NCBI GenBank assembly: GCA_965218115.1
Contig: OZ244584.1
Coordinates: forward strand, 1,646,576-1,710,575
Length of the DNA: 64,000 bases
DNA from: Dehalococcoidia bacterium
GTDB lineage: Bacteria > Chloroflexota > Dehalococcoidia > Bin125
Reading direction: 5' to 3'
The notes under the pieces are model-generated. The model saw only the letters and a program-made list of their open reading frames with translations. It searched no databases and was not told where the DNA came from. The position numbers were made by a program, and so were the translations under genes. The first letter of the stretch is position 1. The number at the start of each line of letters is the position of its first letter. Below are positions 13,702 to 38,040 of the stretch, in pieces.

Positions 13702-15687
13702 TCACATACTGAGGCCCAGATCGCGCAGGAAGGCTTCGGGGGAGGGGTCGCGGCCGAGGAAGCTGCGGACTAGCTGCTCGCCATCCTGGGCGCCGCCTCG
13801 TTCGAGGATTGCGGAGCGGTATTCACGGCCGACCGACTCTGGGGATGCCGCTGAGCCCTCGAATCTGGTGAACATGTCGTCGCCGTAGACGCGCGACCAG
13901 AGGTAGCCGTAGTAGCCCGCGTCGTAGCCGAAGAGGTGGCCGAAGCCGGCCTGGAAGTGCGTGTCGGGCGGGAAGGCGAAGCCGGTGATGGGGTGCAGCT
14001 CGCGCGCGATCGCGTCGGTGTCCTTGCTCGCGCCGGGGCCGTGGTAGGCGAGGTCGAGACGTGCGAAGTAGACCTGCCGCAGCGTGGCGATCCCGCTGCT
14101 CACGTACTTGGCCGCGATCAGCCGGTCGATCAGGTCGCCGGGCAGCGGGCTGCCGGTCTGCCAGTGGCGGCTGAAGCCGGCCAGCACGTCGCGCTCCCAG
14201 CACCAGTGCTCGAGCATCTGCGAGGGCGCCTCGACGAAGTCGCGTTCGACGCGGGTGCCGGAGAAGCGGGTGAAGCGCGCGCGCGTCAGCGTCTGGTGCA
14301 GGATGTGTCCGAACTCGTGGAAGAGCGTGACCACCTCGGTGTGGCGCAGCAGCGAGGGCGAGCTCTCGGTCGGCTTGGTGAAGTTGGCGACGATCGCCGA
14401 GACGGGTCGCTGGTAGCCGCCACCGGCGAGGTCGCGCCCGCCGCGCAGCGTGAAGGCGGCGGCGTGGCCGAACTTGCCGGGCCGGGGGTGTAGGTCCATG
14501 TAGAAGCGCGCCAACGTCTCGCCGCCGGCGTTGTCGACGATGTCGAAGGGCCGAGCGTCGGGATGCCAGGCGTCAGCCGCGGCGTCGTCGCGCGGCACGA
14601 ACGTCACGCCGACGAGCCGCTGGTAGACGTCGAACATGCCCTCCAGCACGGCATCGAGCGGGAGGTAGGCGGCGACCTCGAAGGGGTCGACCTGGTGCTG
14701 CTCGAGCAGGACGCGGTTGGTGTAGTAGCGCCAGTCCCAGATCTTGACGTCGCCCGACGCGCCGGTGCGCCGCTCCTGTTCGCGCTTGAGCAGGTCGAGG
14801 TCGGCTGCGAGCTTGGCCCCGAGCCGAGCTTCCAGGTCGGTGAGGAACTCCATCACGCTGTCGGGCGACTTGGCCATCCGCAGCTCGAGCACGTAGGCGG
14901 CCCAGGAGGGATAGCCGAGCCGCCGCGCAATCTCGTCGCGCACGCCGATCGCTTCTTCGAGCAGCGCGATGTTATCGCCGGCTGCCTTGTTGTGGTTCTT
15001 GAGAAAGATCTCGCGTCGCAGCTCGCCGTCGTCGGCGGAGTCGAGGAAGGGGTGCAGCTCGGGGTAGTCGAGCGAGACGCGGTAGCTGGTCGCGCCGTTG
15101 TGCTCGCTGCTCTGGAGCCGCTCGATGTACGAATCGGGCAGGCCACTGAGCTGGCCGCGCGAGACCGTGATGTGGTCCTCGTAGTCGTCGATGTTGCGGC
15201 GGAACTGGATGCCGAGCCGGACCAATCGCTCGTGCAGCTCCTGCACGGCGTCGCGTTCCTTGGCGGGCAGGTCGAAGCCGTTGCGACGGTAGTCGCGCAG
15301 GCAGAACTCGAGTAGCCGAGCGGCATCGTCGGGCAGGGCCTGAGTCTCGGCGCGGGTCGCGTAGGCCTTGAGCGCGCGGTCGATCTCCTCACGAAAGCCG
15401 AGGCCGCTGGCGAACAGATCGAGGCGCTCTTCCTGCTCGTGGGCCACGCTGCGCAGGGCGGGCTCGGCCGCGACCTGCGAGAGGAATCCGAACTGACCGC
15501 TGGCCTGTCCGATCAGGTCTGAGATGCCGTCGAGCGCGAGCACGGTGTTCTCGAAGTCGCGCCGGCCATCGGGTACCGAGGCGATCGCGTCGACGTGACG
15601 CTCGGCCTCGTCGATCGTCGCTGCGACCCCGCTGCGGATGGCGTCGGCGTCGATTTCGGACCAGTTCGGCGTGTCGAGCTCAGTCAT
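13702..15687 (-). CDS. M3-family metallopeptidase (oligopeptidase A / peptidyl-dipeptidase Dcp type)
   Basis: 661 aa with the HEFGHILH zinc motif and M3-like length and layout. Confidence 0.85.
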   Translation of the reverse strand: MTELDTPNWSEIDADAIRSGVAATIDEAERHVDAIASVPDGRRDFENTVLALDGISDLIGQASGQFGFLSQVAAEPALRSVAHEQEERLDLFASGLGFREEIDRALKAYATRAETQALPDDAARLLEFCLRDYRRNGFDLPAKERDAVQELHERLVRLGIQFRRNIDDYEDHITVSRGQLSGLPDSYIERLQSSEHNGATSYRVSLDYPELHPFLDSADDGELRREIFLKNHNKAAGDNIALLEEAIGVRDEIARRLGYPSWAAYVLELRMAKSPDSVMEFLTDLEARLGAKLAADLDLLKREQERRTGASGDVKIWDWRYYTNRVLLEQHQVDPFEVAAYLPLDAVLEGMFDVYQRLVGVTFVPRDDAAADAWHPDARPFDIVDNAGGETLARFYMDLHPRPGKFGHAAAFTLRGGRDLAGGGYQRPVSAIVANFTKPTESSPSLLRHTEVVTLFHEFGHILHQTLTRARFTRFSGTRVERDFVEAPSQMLEHWCWERDVLAGFSRHWQTGSPLPGDLIDRLIAAKYVSSGIATLRQVYFARLDLAYHGPGASKDTDAIARELHPITGFAFPPDTHFQAGFGHLFGYDAGYYGYLWSRVYGDDMFTRFEGSAASPESVGREYRSAILERGGAQDGEQLVRSFLGRDPSPEAFLRDLGLSM

Positions 15688-16643
15688 GCGGCGGCGACTC
15701 CCTCGGATTCCCAGGCGCGGTCGCGATGACCGAAGTCGAAGCGTCCGGGGTGCAGGATTTTGGCGATGATGTCAAGCGTTTCGACGACCCGCGGGCCCGG
15801 CCGATTGACGTACTGATTGCCGTCGATCAGCGCGACGCGGCCCTCGCGCACCGCGCGCAGCGTTGTCCAGCGCGGATTGGCGCGCAGCAGCTGCGCATCG
15901 CGACGGGTCTGCGGGAGGCCGTAGCCGTACGGCGCGACGATGATGATGTCGGGGTCGGCCGTCTCGAGATCGTCGATGCTGAAGTGCAGCGACTCGCCGC
16001 GGGGAGACCCGATCACGGGTCGGCCAGCGGCCAGCTCGATCAGCTCCATGGTCCAATGCCCGGCGGTCATCAGTGGGTCGGCCCACTCGACAACGGCGAC
16101 GCTGGGCCCCGTTGCTGAGCCGGAGGCCTGCTCCGAGATCTCGGTGATGCGGCGCCGGTAGCCCTCGACGGCGGCGCGTCCCAGATCAGCGCGGTCGAGC
16201 GCACCGGCCGTGCGTTGGATGTCGTCCCAGATATCGCCGAGCGAATTCGGCGCCAGTGAGACGATCCGTGATTCGATGCCGGTCAGCGTGGCGACGGCGC
16301 GTTCGACGTCGCGCAGCGAGACGGCGCAGACTTCGCATTGAGTCTGCGTGACGATGTGCGTGGGACGCAGTTCGCGGAGCAGCACAGTGTCGATCGCGTA
16401 GACGCCGAGCGCATCGGCCTCGTTGGCGTCGCGCGCCGCCCGGGCGAGCTCGCGGACGCGACGATCGATCTCCGCGCTGTCGGGGGTCGCGGCAAATCGC
16501 GGCGTGGTGAGGGCGGGCAGCGACTCCACGCCGGCGGGGAAGTCGCACTCGTGCGAACGGCCGACGAGCTGGTCCTGGAAGCCGAGCGCGCAGACGATCT
16601 CGGTCGCGCTGGGGAGCAGTGAAAAGATGCGTGGCTCGGTCAT
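15684..16643 (-). CDS. ABC-type periplasmic binding protein (Peripla_BP_2; cobalamin/iron-siderophore class)
   Basis: The conserved start is MTEPRIFSLLPSATEIVCALG. The ORF track extends further upstream, but the conserved start is preferred. No obvious signal peptide was seen. Confidence 0.6.
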   Translation of the reverse strand: MTEPRIFSLLPSATEIVCALGFQDQLVGRSHECDFPAGVESLPALTTPRFAATPDSAEIDRRVRELARAARDANEADALGVYAIDTVLLRELRPTHIVTQTQCEVCAVSLRDVERAVATLTGIESRIVSLAPNSLGDIWDDIQRTAGALDRADLGRAAVEGYRRRITEISEQASGSATGPSVAVVEWADPLMTAGHWTMELIELAAGRPVIGSPRGESLHFSIDDLETADPDIIIVAPYGYGLPQTRRDAQLLRANPRWTTLRAVREGRVALIDGNQYVNRPGPRVVETLDIIAKILHPGRFDFGHRDRAWESEGVAAA

Positions 16644-16700
16644 TTCGCTCCTCAATGCCTGGCTGGCGTCACGGTAGCTTGTGTCCGAGGGGAAGCCGCA

Positions 16701-17027
16701 GTGGACTACGGCGTGCGCTGGTTGACCTAGAATGACGCATCTGAAGACGAACTCGCTGATCATGGTCTGTCGGTTGACAATGCGCTGGATGTGTTGGTGG
16801 GACAACCGCGGTTTCACGAGCAGAAGGCCAGCCTGGTGACGCGGGACGACGGAACCGTTCGTTGGCGGCGCCGACGGCTCCACATGATTGGGCGAGACGG
16901 TTCAGGGCGGTTCTTGGTGATCGTGATGGAATTTCCGGACGCGAACGGGGATGCGCATGTGGTGACTGGCTGGCCTGGCGACGGGTCGACGCGAGTCCGT
17001 TACCGTCGGCTTGGAGGGAGACTGTAA
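16701..17027 (+). pseudogene. BrnT-like (DUF497) toxin paralog interrupted by an in-frame TAG at 16728-16730. A GTG at 16791 could restart a truncated 78-aa product.
   Basis: Hand translation gives VDYGVRWLT*NDASEDELADHGLSVDNALDV…HVVTGWPGDGSTRVRY. This aligns across the stop with the intact paralogs at 26450-26788 and 36928-37263. Confidence 0.5.
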
Positions 17028-17266
17028 TGAGCTGTCAGGACGAGGATGTAAGCGCCCTCCAAGGGGAGGCGGTGCACGTTGACACTTCACAGTTTCAGGG
17101 TGTGAAGATCGAGGTGGAGTTCGGAGTGGACGAGATTCGATCGGTCTTCGCGGTTCGACGTCAGGGGGAGAAGACGACTTCGCTGATTCGCGAGGCAGTC
17201 CTCGCGCTGGTCAGGCAGCGGGAGTCGGACACCGCCGGAGCAGTGTTGCCTGACGCAGGCTCATGA
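17027..17266 (+). CDS. BrnA-like antitoxin paralog
   Basis: MSCQDEDVSALQGEAVHV…KIEVEFGVDEIRSVF…LIREAVLALVRQRE is homologous to 26202-26453 and 36677-36931. Its start overlaps the toxin stop (TAATG). Confidence 0.5.
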   Translation: MSCQDEDVSALQGEAVHVDTSQFQGVKIEVEFGVDEIRSVFAVRRQGEKTTSLIREAVLALVRQRESDTAGAVLPDAGS

Positions 17267-18216
17267 CGGACATTTCGCACTCGACGGTTCAGCTTTCGAC
17301 GGGCATCAACATGCATGTCGCCGAGGCTGGCAGCGGCCCGGCGGTCGTGATGTGCCACGGTTTTCCGGAGCTGTGGTACTCGTGGCGGCATCAGATCCCC
17401 GCGCTCGCGGAGGCGGGCTTCCGAGCGATCGCGCCCGATATGCGCGGGTACGGCGGGACCGACGCGCCGGAAGCGATCGAGGACTACACGCAGGAGGCGA
17501 TCTGCGGCGACATGGTCGCGCTGCTCGACGCGCTGGGTGAAGCGACGGCCGTGTTCGTCGGTCACGACTGGGGTGGCGCGGTGGTCTGGAGCATGGCCCA
17601 ACACCATCCCGATCGGGTGCGCGCGGTGGCCGGAATCAACACCCCGGCCTCGCAGCGCGCCCCGATCAGTCCGCTCGACGCCATGAAGATGGACCCCGGG
17701 CGTTTCGACTACCAGCTCTACTTCCAGGAGCCGGGCGTGGCCGAGGCGGAGCTGAGCGCGAATGTACGTCGCGTCTTCACGCTGCTGCTGCGCACATCCA
17801 AGCCCGAGGATGGGATGGATGCGCTGTCGGGCACGGCCGGGGTGCGCGAGCGCGGCGGGCTGCTCGTCGGCGCGCCTGAGACGGCGCCGCGCAGCATCAT
17901 GCTGACCGAGGAGGACCTGCAGACGTTCGTCGAGACATTCGAGCGCACGGGCTTCCGCGGCGGTCTCAACTGGTACCGCAATCACGGCCGCAACTGGGAG
18001 TGGAGCGGGACGCTGACCGAGGAGACGATCAGCCAGCCCGCGCTGATGGTCACCGCCGGCCGCGACCCGGTGCTGCTGCCCGCGATGTCGCACGGGATGG
18101 AGGACTGGATCCCCAACCTCAGCCGCGGCCACATCGAAGAGTGCGGCCATTGGACGCAGCAGGAGGAGCCCGACGAGCTGAATCGGATCCTCGTTGAGTG
18201 GCTAGACTCATTGTGA
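17263..18216 (+). CDS. Alpha/beta hydrolase of the epoxide-hydrolase-like family
   Basis: 317 aa with HGFPELWYSWRHQIP…DMRGYG and a GHDWGG nucleophile elbow. Confidence 0.8.
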   Translation: MTDISHSTVQLSTGINMHVAEAGSGPAVVMCHGFPELWYSWRHQIPALAEAGFRAIAPDMRGYGGTDAPEAIEDYTQEAICGDMVALLDALGEATAVFVGHDWGGAVVWSMAQHHPDRVRAVAGINTPASQRAPISPLDAMKMDPGRFDYQLYFQEPGVAEAELSANVRRVFTLLLRTSKPEDGMDALSGTAGVRERGGLLVGAPETAPRSIMLTEEDLQTFVETFERTGFRGGLNWYRNHGRNWEWSGTLTEETISQPALMVTAGRDPVLLPAMSHGMEDWIPNLSRGHIEECGHWTQQEEPDELNRILVEWLDSL

Positions 18217-18255: not shown

Positions 18256-19470
18256 ATGTCCACCCCCATGCTTCGTCGCTTGATTCTCAAGAGCTTTCGA
18301 AGTGTGCATGCGGCCGCGATCGATCTTGACAACCCGACGCTCCTAGTTGGGCAAAATGGCGCGGGCAAGAGCAACGTCGTCGACGCGCTTGCATTTCTGG
18401 CCGAGCTGATGTCGTCTCCGCTGTCCGCCGCATTCGACAGGCGGGGCGGAATTGCGGCAGTCCGGAATCGCCGCCTCGGACAAAGCCACCCACCGAACAT
18501 GGGATTCCGAGTGGACGTGTCGCAGCCGGACGTCAACACAAAGGAGGCTATGTACGCCTTCGACGTACGGGCACGAAAGAACTACGGCTTTGAAATAGTG
18601 AGAGAACAATGCGCCGTGGTCGACCTAGACGGGTTCACCACATGGTGGTTCGACCGGCGCCGTGATGGAGAGTTCAGCAGCAACGCAAGTTCGTTGAGCC
18701 CCGCATTGGAACCGGAAGCGCTAGCGCTTCCACTTATCGGCGGCGACTCGAGATTTAGACCCATCGTTCAGTTCCTCAGCGACATGCGAGTATACAGAAT
18801 AGAGCCGGTCGTGCTCAGGGAGATGCAGGAACCTGATAGCGGTTTGCGCCTCAACCCGGACGGTAGCAACACAGCGAGCGTGCTCAGAGAGATCGAACGG
18901 AACTCTCCTCACGGGCGTCAGCAGATACTAGCTTTGTTAGAACATATTGTCCCGAACACTGTCGATGTCAAGCCGAAAGCACACGGCAACAAGCTGGCAC
19001 TTGAGTTCGCTCAGCAATGGCCGGACGCACGGAGCATCAAATTCGAGGCCTTCAATATGTCCGACGGAACGCTTCGCGCACTCGGGCTACTGGCTGCGGT
19101 GTTCCAGCAGGCACGACCTTCCGTCTTGGTCATCGAGGAACCCGAAGCCACCATTCATCCCGGTGCGATCGAGGCCGTGCTGGATTTGTTAGAGCATGCG
19201 ACCAGAGATATGCAAGTTATCGCAACCACACATAGTCCAGACCTGCTCGATGCCAAGTGGATCGAAGATCGATTCCTCAAGATCGTCCGCTCGGAAAGGG
19301 GCGCCACAATGGTCTCCCCGGTTTCTCCAGAAGTCAGAAGCGCATTGCAACAGCACCTCATGGGAGCGGGGGAGCTTTTACGAGCGAATGCGCTGACCCC
19401 CATCAGCTCCAGCGATTTGTTCATCCGTGACCCCCGGCAGTTACGTCTTTTCGAGTCACTTTCGTCGTGA
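18256..19470 (+). CDS. ABC/AAA_21-type ATPase of the OLD/AriA-like family
   Basis: 404 aa with Walker A LLVGQNGAGKSN, the ABC signature NMSDGTLR, Walker B VLVIEEPEATIHP and the H-loop ATTHSP. An RBS (AAGGGAG) lies upstream. GC is visibly lower than in the flanks. Confidence 0.75.
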   Translation: MSTPMLRRLILKSFRSVHAAAIDLDNPTLLVGQNGAGKSNVVDALAFLAELMSSPLSAAFDRRGGIAAVRNRRLGQSHPPNMGFRVDVSQPDVNTKEAMYAFDVRARKNYGFEIVREQCAVVDLDGFTTWWFDRRRDGEFSSNASSLSPALEPEALALPLIGGDSRFRPIVQFLSDMRVYRIEPVVLREMQEPDSGLRLNPDGSNTASVLREIERNSPHGRQQILALLEHIVPNTVDVKPKAHGNKLALEFAQQWPDARSIKFEAFNMSDGTLRALGLLAAVFQQARPSVLVIEEPEATIHPGAIEAVLDLLEHATRDMQVIATTHSPDLLDAKWIEDRFLKIVRSERGATMVSPVSPEVRSALQQHLMGAGELLRANALTPISSSDLFIRDPRQLRLFESLSS

Positions 19471-20105
19471 AGATAGTCCCAGTAGTGGAGGGGGAGGGTG
19501 AAGTTAAGGCAGTGCCTATCTTATTGCGCCGGATGATTGCACTGGTAGAGGCGTTCGAATCGATACAGGTCGGCCGGCCTATCCGCAAACCGCGCAGCCA
19601 ACTAACTAAGCGCGAGGGAATGGTTGAGGTCTTGAAGCTTGCCCGCATTCAGGGGGCGGACTCGGTTTTGTGCCTCTTTGATAGCGATGGTGTATGCCCA
19701 GTCAATCTGGCAGCGTGTTTACTGAACTGGGCGAGGGAGGAAGCATCGGACTTGGACTGTCATGTGGTAGTTGCCCATCAAGAATACGAGGCGTGGTTTT
19801 TGGCATCTATTCCTTCGCTTCGAGCGCACCCTGCGATGAGAGACGATGCAGAGTGCCATCCGAATCCAGAAGCGCGTCAAGGCGCGAAAGAACAGCTACA
19901 TAGCCGCATGCAGACTGGCAGCAGTTATTCACCAACGGCTCACCAAGCGGCATTCACCGCCAGCTTTGACATGGCATCCGCATACGCACATTGTCGATCA
20001 TTTCGAAAATTGACTAGCGCATTCGGCCAGATTCTCAGTAGGGTCGATTCGAACGTTGCTCACTGGCCACCAAGAGAATGGTCGGACACGATCATCCCCG
20101 AGTAA
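19467..20105 (+). CDS. TOPRIM-like small protein (DUF4276-like), partner of the upstream ATPase
   Basis: 212 aa with a GTG start overlapping the ATPase stop (GTGA). The N-terminus KIVPVVEGEGE resembles the TOPRIM catalytic Glu strand, CLFDSDG resembles the DxD motif, and HQEYEAWFL resembles the conserved DUF4276 HEFEALLF region. Confidence 0.6.
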   Translation: MKIVPVVEGEGEVKAVPILLRRMIALVEAFESIQVGRPIRKPRSQLTKREGMVEVLKLARIQGADSVLCLFDSDGVCPVNLAACLLNWAREEASDLDCHVVVAHQEYEAWFLASIPSLRAHPAMRDDAECHPNPEARQGAKEQLHSRMQTGSSYSPTAHQAAFTASFDMASAYAHCRSFRKLTSAFGQILSRVDSNVAHWPPREWSDTIIPE

Positions 20106-22593: not shown

Positions 22594-23125
22594 GATTGAG
22601 CGTGAGCAACAGCTCCAGCATCTCGTCGTCGCCGATATCGGGGGGCCAGCCGTAGGCGGCGAAGACGGCGGCGTCGAGTGTTGCGTGGAGGTTGGCGAGC
22701 CAGGTGGGGCGTTCGTTGTAGAGATTGGTCAGCGTGCGCTTGCGGAGCTGTTTTTCGGCGTGTTCGTCGACGGGCAGCAGACGCGGCGGCAGCGAGGGAA
22801 TCACGTCGGGCTCCTCGCGCACCCACTCGGGCGGGTTGAGCCAGAGGCGACGCTTCGAGTCCAGCTCGCGCGCCGCCTCGCCGATGGCGTCGCGGTGGGC
22901 GCGTTGTTCGGGGGTCAGCGCATCATCGGGTGTGTTGAGCGGCCAGGGGAATGGGAAGGTCTCGAACGTGGTGGTCGGCGTGTAGCGAGGGCGGTCCTCA
23001 AGGCTGTCTCCCATTCGCAAGGACCAGAATTCGTACGCAGGTGAGTCTGGCATCGAGGCAAAGTAGACGACGCATATGTCGCGCGGACGCCGCGTCACAT
23101 GCAGCCCGTTGACCCATGAGCCCAC
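22565..23125 (-). CDS. C-terminal fragment of an MmeI/PglX-family (type IIG/IIL restriction-modification, BREX-type) enzyme
   Basis: 186 aa with TFETFPFPWP…LTNLYNERPTWLANLHATLDAAVFAAYGW…DDEMLELLLTLNLKRA, matching the conserved C-terminus of MmeI-family proteins. GC is high, as in host genes. Confidence 0.6.
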   Translation of the reverse strand: MGSWVNGLHVTRRPRDICVVYFASMPDSPAYEFWSLRMGDSLEDRPRYTPTTTFETFPFPWPLNTPDDALTPEQRAHRDAIGEAARELDSKRRLWLNPPEWVREEPDVIPSLPPRLLPVDEHAEKQLRKRTLTNLYNERPTWLANLHATLDAAVFAAYGWPPDIGDDEMLELLLTLNLKRATASAQ

Positions 23126-23270
23126 GCCTCAGGCTCCCTCCGTAGGTCACCCGCATCCCACCCGCCGCCCGAACAGGCACTACTTCGACATGCAACGCAG
23201 CGCTAGGCAGTCAGAAAGGGTCATCAGTCCCGTGGAAACACTCACATTCCACCAGGCGCATACATTTATC

Positions 23271-24194
23271 TCACGGATTTCTGTTCGTAAGGTCCTTTAA
23301 GCGACGCGTCAACATCTCTTTGAGCCCTGTCATGTTGTCGTACTCAGGGCAATTGTATTCACTTAAGTCGAAGTGGAGCTTAGTCCCTCGTTTCCGGTAT
23401 AGTATCACCCTTTTGTCAAGCGCATGAGCGTATCCGACTTCGTAGTACACGTTCGGCTTTTCATTGGTCAAGTCAGCCATGAGGAATTCGGACTTGTTGA
23501 TCCTTTCTCTGACTTTATCTGTTATTCTGCCCTCGTGTTCGATTTCATCAGCACGCACAGCGGCTATTGAGAAATCACCGAAGCAATCGCGGATCGTATT
23601 GTAAGTGTCTTCGAGACCAGGATCGTCCCGATCAATGGCCATCATGACGAATGCCGAGTTTGGTTCGTACGATGTGGTGGATTGGGGGTTGGCTCGCCAC
23701 TCTTCAGTGACGAAGGTTGGGGAGACATCGAGGAGTTCAACCAAGCCCAGTATATTTTCGATGTCGCGCTGGTAATTGCGAAGTGCGATCTTGGGATGAA
23801 CGGGCGTCGTATCTGATTGACTGGCGGGTTGAAATCCGAGCACTTCGCCCTCATCGTGCAATACTTCCGGTTCCGAAAACTCGTAAAGCCGCAACCGAAG
23901 TGATGCGCGCGTTGACTTTGTCCACGTTCCAAGGTCTCGGTGGTCAACATCGGTCACCAGGGCCGAATACTTGAGTGAGTTCGCGATTGGCTTGATCGCC
24001 TTGAGGATCTGGCTCTGGAGGTCGGCGGACTGACTTTTCAAATCATCGTCCAGCTGGGACCAGAAATGGTCAGGCTCGATTTCCCAATACGGACGCTCAT
24101 CGTCATCCAGGTGCATTGCACGTTTGAAGAAGGTTCCGCCGTCGTCTCGGATCTGGGCGAATAGGCTGCGGTAAGGGGTGAAGTCGAGAGTCAT
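23271..24194 (-). CDS. Protein with a C-terminal nucleoside 2-deoxyribosyltransferase-like / TIR-like (SLOG-superfamily) domain and an unassigned N-terminal domain
   Basis: 307 aa. The C-terminus reads FVMMAIDRDDPG…LMADLTNEKPNVYYEVGYAHALDKRVILY, which follows the NDT pattern (…D.gt.fEvGyA.algKpvi.l). GC is clearly lower than in the flanking fragments. Confidence 0.55.
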   Translation of the reverse strand: MTLDFTPYRSLFAQIRDDGGTFFKRAMHLDDDERPYWEIEPDHFWSQLDDDLKSQSADLQSQILKAIKPIANSLKYSALVTDVDHRDLGTWTKSTRASLRLRLYEFSEPEVLHDEGEVLGFQPASQSDTTPVHPKIALRNYQRDIENILGLVELLDVSPTFVTEEWRANPQSTTSYEPNSAFVMMAIDRDDPGLEDTYNTIRDCFGDFSIAAVRADEIEHEGRITDKVRERINKSEFLMADLTNEKPNVYYEVGYAHALDKRVILYRKRGTKLHFDLSEYNCPEYDNMTGLKEMLTRRLKDLTNRNP

Positions 24195-24372
24195 CTTGTT
24201 CCGCCGATGGGAAAGGTGCGCGTCTTCGGCAAGTCATTCAGCGTCATGTTGGTGGAGTTGCTGAGCATTTCCCACGCCTAAGCCTATCCAGTTCTCCCTC
24301 GCGGCCCCCCTGCGGTTCCGCTGAACGAAACCGCACCGCGCCTTCCGTGAGTGGGCTTCAATCGCCCGAACC

Positions 24373-25155
24373 CTAACACTGATTCAGGTGACAGAGGCGA
24401 ACGCGCTTTGCCGTGTCGGCTTCCGGCGGCGGCTTTCGGCTCATCAAGTCAACGTTGTCGGGTTTGTCGGCGCGCGATCCGATCAGGTCGGTGATCAGGC
24501 GCTTGGGCAGCAGACCAACGTCCTCGGCGAAGAGGCAGAACAGCACACGATTGAGGAAGTGCGCGACCGGTTCGGGTTCGTGTCCGCGTTGCTGCATGGA
24601 GCGGGCGAGTTCGGCGAACCGCGAGGCCGCCGCGTCCGTGACCTCATCGGGGGTCTGTCGCGGACGCAGCGCCTGCGGCTCGCTCATCACTGCGCGCAGG
24701 ATGCGCAGCGCTCCCGCGGTCTTGTCCCCGCCGGCAGCAAGGTCTTCGAGCGTCAGCGAGTGGATGGTGGGACGGGTGTTGGTGAAGTTGGTGTGGACCT
24801 CGATCCGGTCCATGTCGCTGACGACGAGCACGGGCGGATTCTCGAGGTCTTCGCGGTAGTCAAGCAGTTGCCGATAGGCGGCGGCGAGGTCGGCGTGGTC
24901 GCCCTTGTACTCCCAACCGAAGTGTCGGCGCTTCCAGACGTCAGCCCAACCCTGGTTCCCGGTGCTCAGTCGTTCGGCGCCAGCCTCGAAGGTGTACCGC
25001 TCACCGGTCGGGTCGGCCTCGTTTGGGGTCTGGACGCCGAGCATGCGGCAGAGGTCGATGAAGTGCTCCTGCGAGGAGGCACGCTCGCGACGGGCGTTGT
25101 CGCGCCACTTGGCGGCGAATTGGGCAGCGGAGAGTGATCCAGGCGAAGCCGCCAT
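24373..25155 (-). CDS. N-terminal fragment of an MmeI/PglX-family enzyme: PD-(D/E)xK nuclease domain plus helical spacer, with the methyltransferase core missing
   Basis: 260 aa with AAQFAAKW…FIDLCRMLGV…ADVWKRRHFGWEYKG (D…ExK), VLVVSDMDRIEVHTNFTNT and RVLFCLFAEDVGLLP. All are hallmarks of the MmeI-family N-terminus and helical domain. It ends with a stop where the methyltransferase domain should begin. Confidence 0.65.
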   Translation of the reverse strand: MAASPGSLSAAQFAAKWRDNARRERASSQEHFIDLCRMLGVQTPNEADPTGERYTFEAGAERLSTGNQGWADVWKRRHFGWEYKGDHADLAAAYRQLLDYREDLENPPVLVVSDMDRIEVHTNFTNTRPTIHSLTLEDLAAGGDKTAGALRILRAVMSEPQALRPRQTPDEVTDAAASRFAELARSMQQRGHEPEPVAHFLNRVLFCLFAEDVGLLPKRLITDLIGSRADKPDNVDLMSRKPPPEADTAKRVRLCHLNQC

Positions 25156-26201: not shown

Positions 26202-26453
26202 TCAGTCGGCAGCGTGCAGACCATCGCCCGACTTGGCCTCGGCTTCGCGGTCCGCGGTTTCGAGCGCTGCGCGCTTGATGAAACGAATCAGTGGTCCACG
26301 GGGGTGTCGGCCACGGAGGCGTTCGACCTCCTCGCGATTGAATTCAATCTCGATGCCCAGCACGCCGGGACCCTTCTTCGCAGGGTCGTAGGGAATCTCT
26401 TCCGCATCGGCGATCGGCGTGTCAATGTGCAGCTTGCTGTGTTGCTTGGTCAT
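26202..26453 (-). CDS. BrnA-like antitoxin
   Basis: 83 aa downstream of the BrnT-like gene with a 4-nt overlap. It has the conserved …IEIEFNREEVERLR…RFIKRAALE…REA…. Confidence 0.5.
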   Translation of the reverse strand: MTKQHSKLHIDTPIADAEEIPYDPAKKGPGVLGIEIEFNREEVERLRGRHPRGPLIRFIKRAALETADREAEAKSGDGLHAAD

Positions 26454-26788
26454 CGCCTGCGCATCCTTCCTCCAGGTTGATGGTATCGCGTTCGTTCCTC
26501 ATCGTCAGAAATCCAACCGGTCACCACATGGGACATCCGATCCTGGTCGGAAGGCTCCAGGACGAAGGTCAACAGGAGGCCGGTTCTGTCGGGCCCGATC
26601 ATTTTCACTCGCTCCGGCTGAAAGCGAACGTTTCCCAGCTCGTCTTCGCGTTGCCTCGCTGGTTGGGCAAAGTACTTCGCCGGTCCTTCCCAGACGTCAT
26701 CGGCGTCATCGAGCGACAGCCCGTGCGCCCAGAGTTCATCATCGCTCGCATGGTTTCCGGTCACACCGCCGTATGGGATCTCAGGCAT
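26450..26788 (-). CDS. BrnT-like (DUF497) toxin
   Basis: 112 aa with …DELWAHGLSLDDADDVW… and …MIGPDRTGLLLTFVLEP…SHVVTGWISDDEERTRY. It follows the BrnT pattern (HG[ILV]xFxxA…; R[VI]IS.R.A…E…Y) and has toxin-first gene order, as in brnTA. Confidence 0.55.
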   Translation of the reverse strand: MPEIPYGGVTGNHASDDELWAHGLSLDDADDVWEGPAKYFAQPARQREDELGNVRFQPERVKMIGPDRTGLLLTFVLEPSDQDRMSHVVTGWISDDEERTRYHQPGGRMRRR

Positions 26789-36676: not shown

Positions 36677-36931
36677 TCAGGCGGACTCGCGCAGCCGCTG
36701 CTCGGCCTTGCGCTTGGCCTCGCGGTCGGCCAACTCCAGGGCGGCGCGCTTGATGAAACGGGCATACCTGCCGCGAGTGACAGCCTCCCTGAGCCGGTCG
36801 ATCTCCTCAGAACTGAACTCAACCTCAATCACGAACGAGCCGGGCCCCATCTGTGATGGATCGTATGCAACCTCTTCCGCCTCCCCGATCGGCGGGTCAA
36901 CAATGTGGACAGGCTCCAAGCGTTCGCTCAT
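36677..36931 (-). CDS. BrnA-like antitoxin
   Basis: 84 aa, …IEVEFSSEEIDRLREAVTRGRYARFIKRAALELADREAKRKAEQRLRESA, with a 4-nt overlap with the upstream toxin. Confidence 0.5.
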   Translation of the reverse strand: MSERLEPVHIVDPPIGEAEEVAYDPSQMGPGSFVIEVEFSSEEIDRLREAVTRGRYARFIKRAALELADREAKRKAEQRLRESA

Positions 36932-37263
36932 CTGATCCGCATCCTTCCTCCAGGCCGATCGTAGCGCGTTCGTTCCTCATCGTCCGACTCCCATCCGGTC
37001 CCCACATGTGAGCGGCCGTTGGAGTTCGGAAGTTCGATTACGAACGTCAACAGCCGGCCGCCACGATCCGGACCGATCATCAGCAACCGGCTCGGTTGCC
37101 TAGACACCTGACCGGATGCGTTGATTCGATCGCGCGCGGGCTGCCTGAAGTATTTGGCCGAGCCTCGCCACACGTCGCGGGCATGGGCGAACTCGAATCG
37201 GTGATTCCACAGCTCTTCATCGGTAGCGTCGTTGCCCGCGATCCCTCGCTCCGGGATGTCCAT
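36928..37263 (-). CDS. BrnT-like (DUF497) toxin
   Basis: 111 aa, a close paralog of 26450-26788 (…MIGPDRGGRLLTFVIELP…SHVGTGWESDDEERTRY). Confidence 0.55.
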   Translation of the reverse strand: MDIPERGIAGNDATDEELWNHRFEFAHARDVWRGSAKYFRQPARDRINASGQVSRQPSRLLMIGPDRGGRLLTFVIELPNSNGRSHVGTGWESDDEERTRYDRPGGRMRIR

Positions 37264-37330
37264 GCACTCAGTGTATGGCTGAAACTGGCGAAGTCCCGCC
37301 GGGAAGAGCGTCGGGCTCGAGGGTCACGGC

Positions 37331-37555
37331 TCAGGCGGACTCGCGCATCCGTTCCGCTGCCTTGCGCTTGGCCTCGCGCTCGGCCAACTCCAGGGCGGCG
37401 CGCTTGATGAAGCGGGTGATCCCCTCGGGACCGCGCGTATAGCCGGCGCGGAGACGCTTCACTTCCTCGGCATCGAACTCGACTTCGATCATCCAGTGGC
37501 CCGGCTCTCTGTTCGCGACCTCAATGCTGGGCGGTGGGCTGGCTGCTGAGTTCAC
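37331..37555 (-). CDS. Orphan BrnA-like antitoxin paralog
   Basis: 74 aa, …WMIEVEFDAEEVKRLRAGYTRGPEGITRFIKRAALELAEREAKRKAAERMRESA. There is no adjacent toxin gene. Confidence 0.45.
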   Translation of the reverse strand: MNSAASPPPSIEVANREPGHWMIEVEFDAEEVKRLRAGYTRGPEGITRFIKRAALELAEREAKRKAAERMRESA

Positions 37556-37797
37556 GCGGATTCGCGCAACGCTTCGTCCTGCTTCTCGGCCTCGGCGGCT
37601 GCCCGCCGATCCGCTTCGGCAAGGGCAGCCTGCCTGATAAATCCGGTGATTCGCGTACCGCGTTCCACGCCGCGTTTCAGTCGTTGCACGTCCTCAGGCG
37701 AAAACTCCACCTGAATGATCATCCGACCGGGCCGCTGGCGCTCGCAGACCAGCTCCACAGTGTTCGGTGTCATTGGTTCGTCTTCGTGCCTGCTCAT
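37552..37797 (-). CDS. Orphan BrnA-like antitoxin paralog
   Basis: Conserved core …MIIQVEFSPEDVQRLKRGVERGTRITGFIRQAALAEADRRAAAEAEK… Start taken at MSRHEDEP (37797). The ORF track extends to 37860. Confidence 0.45.
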   Translation of the reverse strand: MSRHEDEPMTPNTVELVCERQRPGRMIIQVEFSPEDVQRLKRGVERGTRITGFIRQAALAEADRRAAAEAEKQDEALRESA

Positions 37798-37940
37798 CGG
37801 CGACGCGTCCTTCCACCGGGGCGAGCGTAGCGCGTTCGCTCGTCTTCGCCGGACTCCCATCCAGTGACGAGATGCGACACGCCGTCCGCTCCAGGGAGTT
37901 CAAGAACGAAGCTAAGAATCCTCTGAACAAGTCGGACACC

Positions 37941-38040
37941 ATCTCCCTCTGCTCTGCGGGGGGAGATGTCACGGAGTGACAGAGGGGACCGCGGCCCCCC
38001 TCTGCCTTCGGCATCTCCCCCCGCTTTGCGGGGGGAGAGT
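37941..38040. repeat. ~100-nt composite REP/MITE-like element, a near-copy of 30768-30895
   Basis: CTCTGCTCTGCGGGGGGAGATGTCACGGAGTGACAGAGGGG…CCCCCCTCTGCCTTCGGCATCTCCCCCCGCTTTGCGGGGGGAGAG, made of nested inverted repeats. Confidence 0.7.

Follow-up and report, generated by a model that had tools for sequence, protein, structure and literature searches.

The locus at 16701-17266 of the window (the whole 64,000-nt stretch of DNA analysed here) raises the question of how an interrupted toxin gene came to lie directly upstream of an intact antitoxin gene, and whether the interruption changed the control of the hydrolase gene that follows. The explanation that we favour as a whole, and regard as probable, is a recent nonsense mutation of Trp10 in a BrnT-fold toxin of a rare, unannotated type II toxin-antitoxin (TA) family, by which the antitoxin was left as an orphan. 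The features of the locus and of the other copies in the window are listed in Table 1.

Table 1. Coordinates of the T1-A1 locus, its neighbours and the related modules in the window.
Feature	Coordinates	Strand	Remarks
M3 peptidase	13702..15687		Follows the binding-protein gene
Periplasmic binding protein (Peripla_BP_2)	15684..16643	-	Divergent neighbour
Divergent intergenic region, 57 bp	16644..16700	.	From binding-protein gene to toxin GTG; presumed promoter/operator (inferred role); holds the Shine-Dalgarno-like GAGGGG of the toxin
psi-T1, toxin pseudogene	16701..17027	+	BrnT-fold ORF of 108 codons; GTG start, TAA stop; broken at codon 10
Premature TAG, codon 10	16728..16730	+	TGG (Trp10) in six close relatives
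Residual ORF, 78 codons	16791..17027	+	Opens at GTG (codon 31), the earliest restart in frame
Shine-Dalgarno GGAGGGAG	17013..17020	+	6 nt ahead of the antitoxin ATG; conserved in L081
Antitoxin A1, 79 aa, intact	17027..17266	+	Stop TGA at 17264-66; TAATG overlap with the toxin stop
Alpha/beta hydrolase, 317 aa (Abhydrolase_1, epoxide-hydrolase-like)	17263..18216	+	ATG at 17263-65 overlaps the antitoxin TGA (ATGA)
Intact pair T2 (26450..26788) and A2 (26202..26453)	26202..26788	-	
Intact pair T3 (36928..37263) and A3 (36677..36931)	36677..37263	-	
Second decayed module: toxin remnant (37806..37925), then A5 (37552..37797) and A4 (37331..37555)	37331..37925	-	Remnant is 5'-deleted, last ~40 aa left

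A single stop codon interrupts the toxin gene

The preliminary description of this DNA held that the toxin gene was broken by an in-frame TAG, and this was confirmed in the sequence. The TAG is in frame with both the GTG at 16701 and the terminal TAA at 17025-27, and it is the sole interruption of the ORF. One G>A change at position 16729, within an ancestral CCTGG, accounts for the lesion. TAG is an ordinary stop codon here and terminates 19 of 53 high-GC3 ORFs, and no suppressor tRNA was found within the window. No Rfam families were found at the toxin-antitoxin locus.

The GTG at 16791 is the first in-frame ATG, GTG or TTG past the TAG, and the sequence holds no Shine-Dalgarno upstream of it. 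It had been pointed out that a restart there would remove the N-terminal strand of the protein. The AF2 model of paralogue T3 and the alignment bear this out and indicate that the loss would extend beyond strand 1 to helix 1, to His21 and to the greater part of helix 2. Because it lacks these elements as well as a Shine-Dalgarno sequence, the residual ORF is unlikely to give a functional product.

The conceptual T1 product was compared with the window by tblastn. It was aligned without gaps to T2 (44% identity, E 8e-21) and T3 (40% identity, E 4e-20), sequence matches that lie far beyond chance, and it also matched a C-terminal toxin fragment near 37827-37922. The residue-by-residue alignment with two intact paralogues, first proposed by eye, therefore holds across the stop when computed. 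The residues assigned to the column of the TAG had to be revised: T2 and T3 have Gly there (GGA/GGC) and not Asn or His, the Asn being encoded by the next codon. The true orthologues have Trp (TGG) in this column, and Trp is also its commonest residue across the toxin family (14 of 43 members). The window contains five antitoxin genes in total versus two intact toxin genes.

Judged from the sequence, 16701-17027 is best read as a recent nonsense pseudogene, with the toxin dead and the antitoxin intact, and the module 16701-17266 as a degraded type II TA locus with an orphan antitoxin.

The ancestral allele and the age of the mutation

A profile search with the antitoxin gave a cluster of seven members 95% identical to A1, and the contigs of these members were compared with the window. 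They shared 94-98% nucleotide identity with window positions 16644-17266. In the six clean contigs (L081-L086) the toxin gene had the GTG start and a complete ORF of 108 codons, with TGG at the position of the TAG in 6 of 6. The seventh contig (L087) had 1x coverage and was frameshifted in the toxin gene, and it was left out. The more distant orthologues in L004 and L005 (57-58% identity) also had Trp in this column.

Among the seven close sequences, the toxin had a pN/pS of 0.23 and the antitoxin one of 0.29. Private substitutions were counted in a four-way alignment of 4177 bp comprising the window and its relatives. The window had 74 of them (1.8% of 4177 bp) versus 60-90 in the relatives, and GC>AT transitions were the dominant class (33 of the 74). 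Only two window-private substitutions fell in the toxin gene (327 bp), the nonsense change and one other. Since the toxin gene carries just these two private changes and its pN/pS is 0.23, purifying selection acted on the toxin until very recently, and the gene shows no decay since the stop arose. The TGG>TAG change is thus a private and recent transition in the host genome. The CCTGG motif in which it lies is a hot spot for deamination of 5-methylcytosine.

The TAG might instead be an artefact of the assembly or of the consensus, or the assembler might have fixed a minority allele, in an organism that truly carries the TGG toxin; we consider this unlikely. An error would fit a lesion of one base in an otherwise pristine gene, which has only 2 private substitutions and none that is synonymous against the nearest relative (L084), and it would fit the TGG found in all six relatives. 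The affected base also lies inside an ancestral CCWGG motif, whose methylation is a possible trap for some long-read basecallers, and the contig of 1x coverage has an error-like frameshift in the same gene. However, the count of private differences in the window matches that of the relatives, and the change belongs to the class that dominates among real mutations. Of the 74 private differences a single one falls within CCWGG, while 10 such sites are intact across the 4.2 kb compared and 185 across the whole window; a systematic error at this motif was rejected on that ground. Independent lesions that inactivate the toxin are moreover common in the family, as described below. With a true mutation as the preferred reading, the locus would document the first step of decay with the ancestral allele known: one TGG>TAG transition and no later decay.

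The toxin is a remote relative of BrnT

The window toxins did not reach the gathering score of the Pfam family PF04365 (BrnT/DUF497), which is 34.5 bits. The highest scores were 15 bits for the L004 orthologue and 14.2 bits (E 0.057) for the repaired T1 orthologue, followed by 13.6 bits (E 0.086) for T2; T1 and T3 gave no match to PF04365, and NCBIfam and PADLOC returned nothing for the window toxins. When 1.84 billion cluster representatives were searched exhaustively with a profile, only 71 relatives of the toxin emerged. The top match of this search, P0001 (4370 aa, 21 stretches), was discarded as spurious, being a repeat protein with repeats that resemble VVTGW..D.E..R. The repaired toxin gave no match in a word-indexed search, probably because gene callers leave the toxin ORF uncalled in the related contigs. 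The toxin is often missed by gene callers.

The profile of the toxin family (43 members) matched the PDB chain 7vd7_A at E 6.7e-4, and 7vd7_A is itself a PF04365 protein (E 4.6e-22). The same profile reached 11 proteins annotated as PF04365/DUF497, with E values from 1.8e-8 to 7.6e-5 in 5.8e9 sequences. Weak contact with PF04365 (E<=1) was seen in 21 of the 43 members, the best at 1.9e-6. The AF2 model of T3 had a pLDDT of 95.2, and the top two PDB matches of this model in Foldseek were 7vd7_A and 3u97 (BrnT), both with probability 1.00 and TM 0.66-0.70, the next match having a probability of at most 0.2. The term BrnT-like, used for this toxin from the start, is therefore apt as to remote homology and predicted fold, and fails as to membership of the Pfam family, whose threshold is missed. 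By profile and fold the toxin is a remote relative of BrnT/DUF497 that stays below formal Pfam membership.

In the HMM alignment to 7vd7_A, which is not a structural superposition, His21 of T1 aligns with the His of the K-H-G motif, the catalytic His of BrnT-family proteins. This column holds His in T1 and 28 of the 43 members, and Arg in 13. The column of BrnT Lys16 is variable in the toxin family, with Asp in T1, and the column of BrnT Arg72 (the 'SAR' arginine) is W, Y or F in 41 of 43 members, both according to the same kind of alignment. K16, H17 and R72 of BrnT are reported to be important for toxicity (cited in PMC13284704). Because the equivalents of Lys16 and Arg72 are not conserved, the biochemical activity of the toxin may differ from that of BrnT.

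The antitoxin belongs to an unnamed family

The antitoxin gene was described at the outset as intact, and we found it to be a complete ORF. Its ATG at 17027 shares the A with the toxin stop TAA. Since A1 has its own Shine-Dalgarno sequence, its translation would be independent of that of the toxin. The core motif of A1 is IEVEF..DEI....FIReAvLAL, with a predicted beta-alpha-alpha topology, and the core of the family is I-E-V-E-F..(D/E)E(I/V)..L....FI(K/R).AAL. The family comprises at least 135 unnamed proteins that co-occur beside the toxins. A1 is only 19-25% identical to A2 and A3, and its N-terminal half is unrelated to theirs.

No domain database recognised these proteins. There were no Pfam domains among the 120 listed homologues of A1, and A1-A3 gave no match to Pfam or NCBIfam. 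The metagenome scans with the antitoxin found nothing. The antitoxin had been called BrnA-like; 0 of 49 family members matched BrnA or a ribbon-helix-helix family of Pfam at E<=1, the antitoxin profile found nothing below E 0.26 in the PDB, and the fold search against the PDB gave no significant match, so that the name is left with the position of the gene as its support. The model of the antitoxin (pLDDT 65.5, moderate) has an extended segment followed by two helices; a ribbon-helix-helix fold is plausible for it.

Matches to the toxin profile and the antitoxin profile were adjacent in L001, L004/L005, L013, L023, L024 and L081-L086, and in T2/A2 and T3/A3 of the window. As far as sequence goes, the T1-A1 locus has the generic layout of a type II TA module, with small, adjacent, co-directional and overlapping genes whose families co-occur.

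Coupling with the hydrolase gene predates the lesion

The overlap between the antitoxin stop and the hydrolase start, already recorded in the preliminary description, was verified (Table 1). That description went on to suggest that the hydrolase may therefore now, after the lesion, be driven by the TA promoter. In close relatives with an intact toxin, the order of the binding-protein gene and the toxin-antitoxin-hydrolase genes is the same, with an identical GCTCATGAC junction. Because these relatives share the order and the ATGA overlap, the coupling predates the lesion; the idea that it is a consequence of the lesion is thus corrected, and the arrangement is ancestral. The TA promoter may drive the hydrolase.

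The core of the 57-bp divergent region was conserved in L081-L086. No promoter-like sequence (including the sigma-70 consensus), terminator-like sequence or inverted-repeat operator was detected around 16600-16760. A -10-like TAGAAT made by the mutation was considered and dropped, as it had no usable -35 or TG extension and was not listed by the promoter scan.

Other loci were collected by searching a single genome from each species with the neighbouring peptidase, which also placed the window in Dehalococcoidia. The spacer between the hydrolase and the peptidase proved to be a hot spot for differing alleles of the TA family. L001 and L013 carried a toxin of 108 aa and a double-core antitoxin of 141 aa with an overlap of 8 nt with the hydrolase start, and in L012 and L023/L050 the antitoxin had an overlap of 4 nt with it. 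The TA module of L004/L005 and L002/L003 was located beyond the binding-protein gene. The majority of the remaining genomes scanned were without TA, and their divergent hydrolase and peptidase genes were ~90 bp apart.

Toxin loss recurs in the family

Further losses of the toxin were found when all the loci collected were searched with the profiles and translated directly. The toxin of L050 differs from the intact L023 by a CGA>TGA change and by the substitution of two invariant glycines (Gly>Val and Gly>Glu), and the antitoxin is kept. In L002/L003 a deletion of the 5' part left 27 codons of the toxin, also with the antitoxin kept. The remnant at 37806..37925 of the window is a third further loss, in which two antitoxin copies were retained. 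In L036, toxin and antitoxin are decaying together. These sequences indicate that toxin loss with retention of the antitoxin arose independently several times in the family. Orphan antitoxins are abundant in other bacteria, for example in a survey of Klebsiella (PMC7192599). The present locus is an ordinary case of an orphan antitoxin, on a common route of decay for chromosomal TA pairs.

A broader view would be that a Dehalococcoidia-centred TA family repeatedly inserts into the divergent promoter region ahead of the conserved hydrolase gene and supplies it with a promoter and a regulator, toxin loss then leaving the antitoxin as a domesticated repressor; we regard this as decidedly improbable. 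It is likewise very improbable that A1 itself was retained by domestication, either as a transcription factor of the hydrolase or in an anti-addiction or cross-neutralising role towards T2 and T3. In favour of domestication are the conservation, among alleles and species, of the ATGA overlap with the hydrolase, the persistence of antitoxins beside dead toxins in L050, L002/L003 and window 37331-37797, the excess of antitoxin copies over intact toxins in the window, and the antitoxin pN/pS of 0.29 between a toxin-deleted and a toxin-intact lineage. On the other hand, the lesion in T1 is too recent for retention of A1 to signal selection. The binding-protein gene separates the antitoxin from the hydrolase in L002-L005, and genomes without TA express the hydrolase from the ~90-bp divergent spacer. 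The low identity of A1 to A2 and A3, its unrelated N-terminal half and the joint decay in L036 also speak against domestication. That a shortened or read-through toxin is still active, through restart at GTG 16791, from which 78 codons are open, or through suppression of the TAG, is extremely improbable given the missing Shine-Dalgarno and structural elements, the normal use of TAG as a stop and the lack of a suppressor tRNA in the window.

With a recent nonsense mutation and an orphan antitoxin as the preferred explanation, the following course may be proposed. The toxin has an RNase T1/RelE-like BrnT fold, and the small antitoxin encoded downstream is probably a ribbon-helix-helix protein. 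The ancestral state is still present in sister populations, with toxin, antitoxin and hydrolase genes co-directional and overlapping (TAATG, ATGA). The three genes would most likely form one transcript that starts in the 57-bp region between the toxin gene and the divergent binding-protein gene. The G>A change turned Trp10 (TGG) into TAG, and translation of the toxin would end after 9 residues. A restart at codon 31 would have neither a ribosome-binding site nor His21, so that presumably no active toxin is made, and the antitoxin, with its own strong Shine-Dalgarno sequence, could still be translated as an orphan. The lesion, its ancestral state and recent origin, the fold, the older gene order and the repeated loss of the toxin are shown by the data, whereas RNase activity, neutralisation, autoregulation and co-transcription with the hydrolase are inferred.

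Comparison with known systems

The module shares with BrnT/BrnA of Brucella abortus (3U97) and with the BrnT-family complex of Salmonella (7VD7) the order with the toxin first and a small, overlapping antitoxin. Its toxin has the predicted fold and the profile homology in common with these BrnT proteins, as well as, by alignment, the His of the K-H-G motif at His21. It differs in its length, with ~20-30 additional residues and a beta-hairpin region inserted at model residues ~37-56, in scoring below the Pfam threshold, and in the residues at the two other positions, Lys16 not being conserved and Arg72 being replaced by Trp, Tyr or Phe. Neither BrnA nor any Pfam family shows detectable similarity to the antitoxin, and T1 of the window, unlike BrnT, is a pseudogene.

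RelS-RelI of Mycobacterium tuberculosis (PDB 9SDC; PMC13284704) likewise has a BrnT-like toxin that is encoded first and an antitoxin outside known families; RelS cleaves 16S rRNA (PMC13284704). The toxin profile and RelS (9sdc_C) shared a local motif, LLVIGPDQTGRLLELV versus R.LMIGPDRSGRLLTFV, at E 0.066 over 22 residues only, which is not significant, and the antitoxin profile had no match in the 9sdc chains. RelI is an HTH protein, whereas the antitoxin described here is predicted to be beta-alpha-alpha.

Taken alone, the locus is a routine example of TA decay and of modest value. It exposed a rare family of BrnT-fold toxins with its partner family of antitoxins, found mostly in Dehalococcoidia and covered by no domain database. 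The orphan antitoxins and degraded TA loci of the Klebsiella survey (PMC7192599) likewise have an inactivated toxin and an intact antitoxin in its original context. What distinguishes the present case from those loci is that the ancestral allele, the exact mutation and the parallel independent losses are directly shown, the same outcome having been reached independently several times within one small family.

Sequences flanking the disrupted toxin gene

The homology between the window and its relatives of 94-98% identity stops near 18203. An AAA_21 ATPase and a DUF4276 protein are encoded at 18256-20105 (+), and the pair matches the PADLOC candidate defence system HEC-01 A/B with E values of 1e-108 and 7e-61. 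GC content of this segment is about 0.55, compared with 0.69 in its flanks. In the same relatives, a different HEC-01-like pair occupies the equivalent slot on the opposite strand. The segment looks like a swapped defence cassette directly 3' of the alpha/beta hydrolase gene.

Upstream of the BrnT-fold toxin pseudogene T1, 3 of the 74 substitutions private to the window were located in the 57-bp intergenic region 16644-16700. As about 1 was expected, this number is not statistically remarkable. One of the three, an A>G change at 16690, converts GAGAGG to GAGGGG in the ribosome-binding region of T1.

Toxin and antitoxin homologues in related contigs and other loci

The related contigs L081-L087 contain an intact 108-codon toxin ORF with a GTG start (e.g. 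L082:2618-3000), which was missed by gene callers in every one of them, and protein databases therefore hold no close relative of this toxin. Its GC3 is 0.67 versus about 0.88 in neighbouring genes.

At the hot spot between the hydrolase and peptidase genes, loci L001 and L013 (7083-7508) encode a 141-aa antitoxin that carries the core motif in two tandem copies and whose gene shares 8 nt with the start of the hydrolase gene. At L024:2515-3078, a single 187-codon ORF contains both toxin and antitoxin homologues. It appears to be a fusion of the two genes or to reflect a toxin gene that lost its stop codon.

Other copies in the window

The intact pair T2-A2, at 26202-26788 (-), is flanked by genes for isocitrate lyase and a luciferase-like monooxygenase. 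In the equivalent slot of another Dehalococcoidia genome (L036:940-1465), the toxin is frameshifted and the antitoxin truncated. The other copies form a tandem array at 36677-37925 (-), listed in order below.

Components of the tandem toxin-antitoxin array
Feature	Position	Strand	Remark
Toxin remnant	37806-37925	-	5'-deleted
Antitoxin A5	37552-37797	-	ATGA overlap with stop of toxin remnant
Antitoxin A4	37331-37555	-	GTGA overlap
Toxin T3	36928-37263	-	intact
Antitoxin A3	36677-36931	-	

At about 38000-38040, directly upstream of the toxin remnant, there are G-rich hairpin-like repeats (CTCCCCCCGCAAAGCGGGGGGAG).

Within the region 23000-25155, a GC trough (0.48-0.55) at 23200-24000 contains a 307-aa ORF with a weak match to nucleoside deoxyribosyltransferase. 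Of an MmeI-type restriction-modification enzyme, the adjoining 260-aa ORF retains just the N-terminal domain and the helicase-spacer domain; it is probably a truncated remnant.
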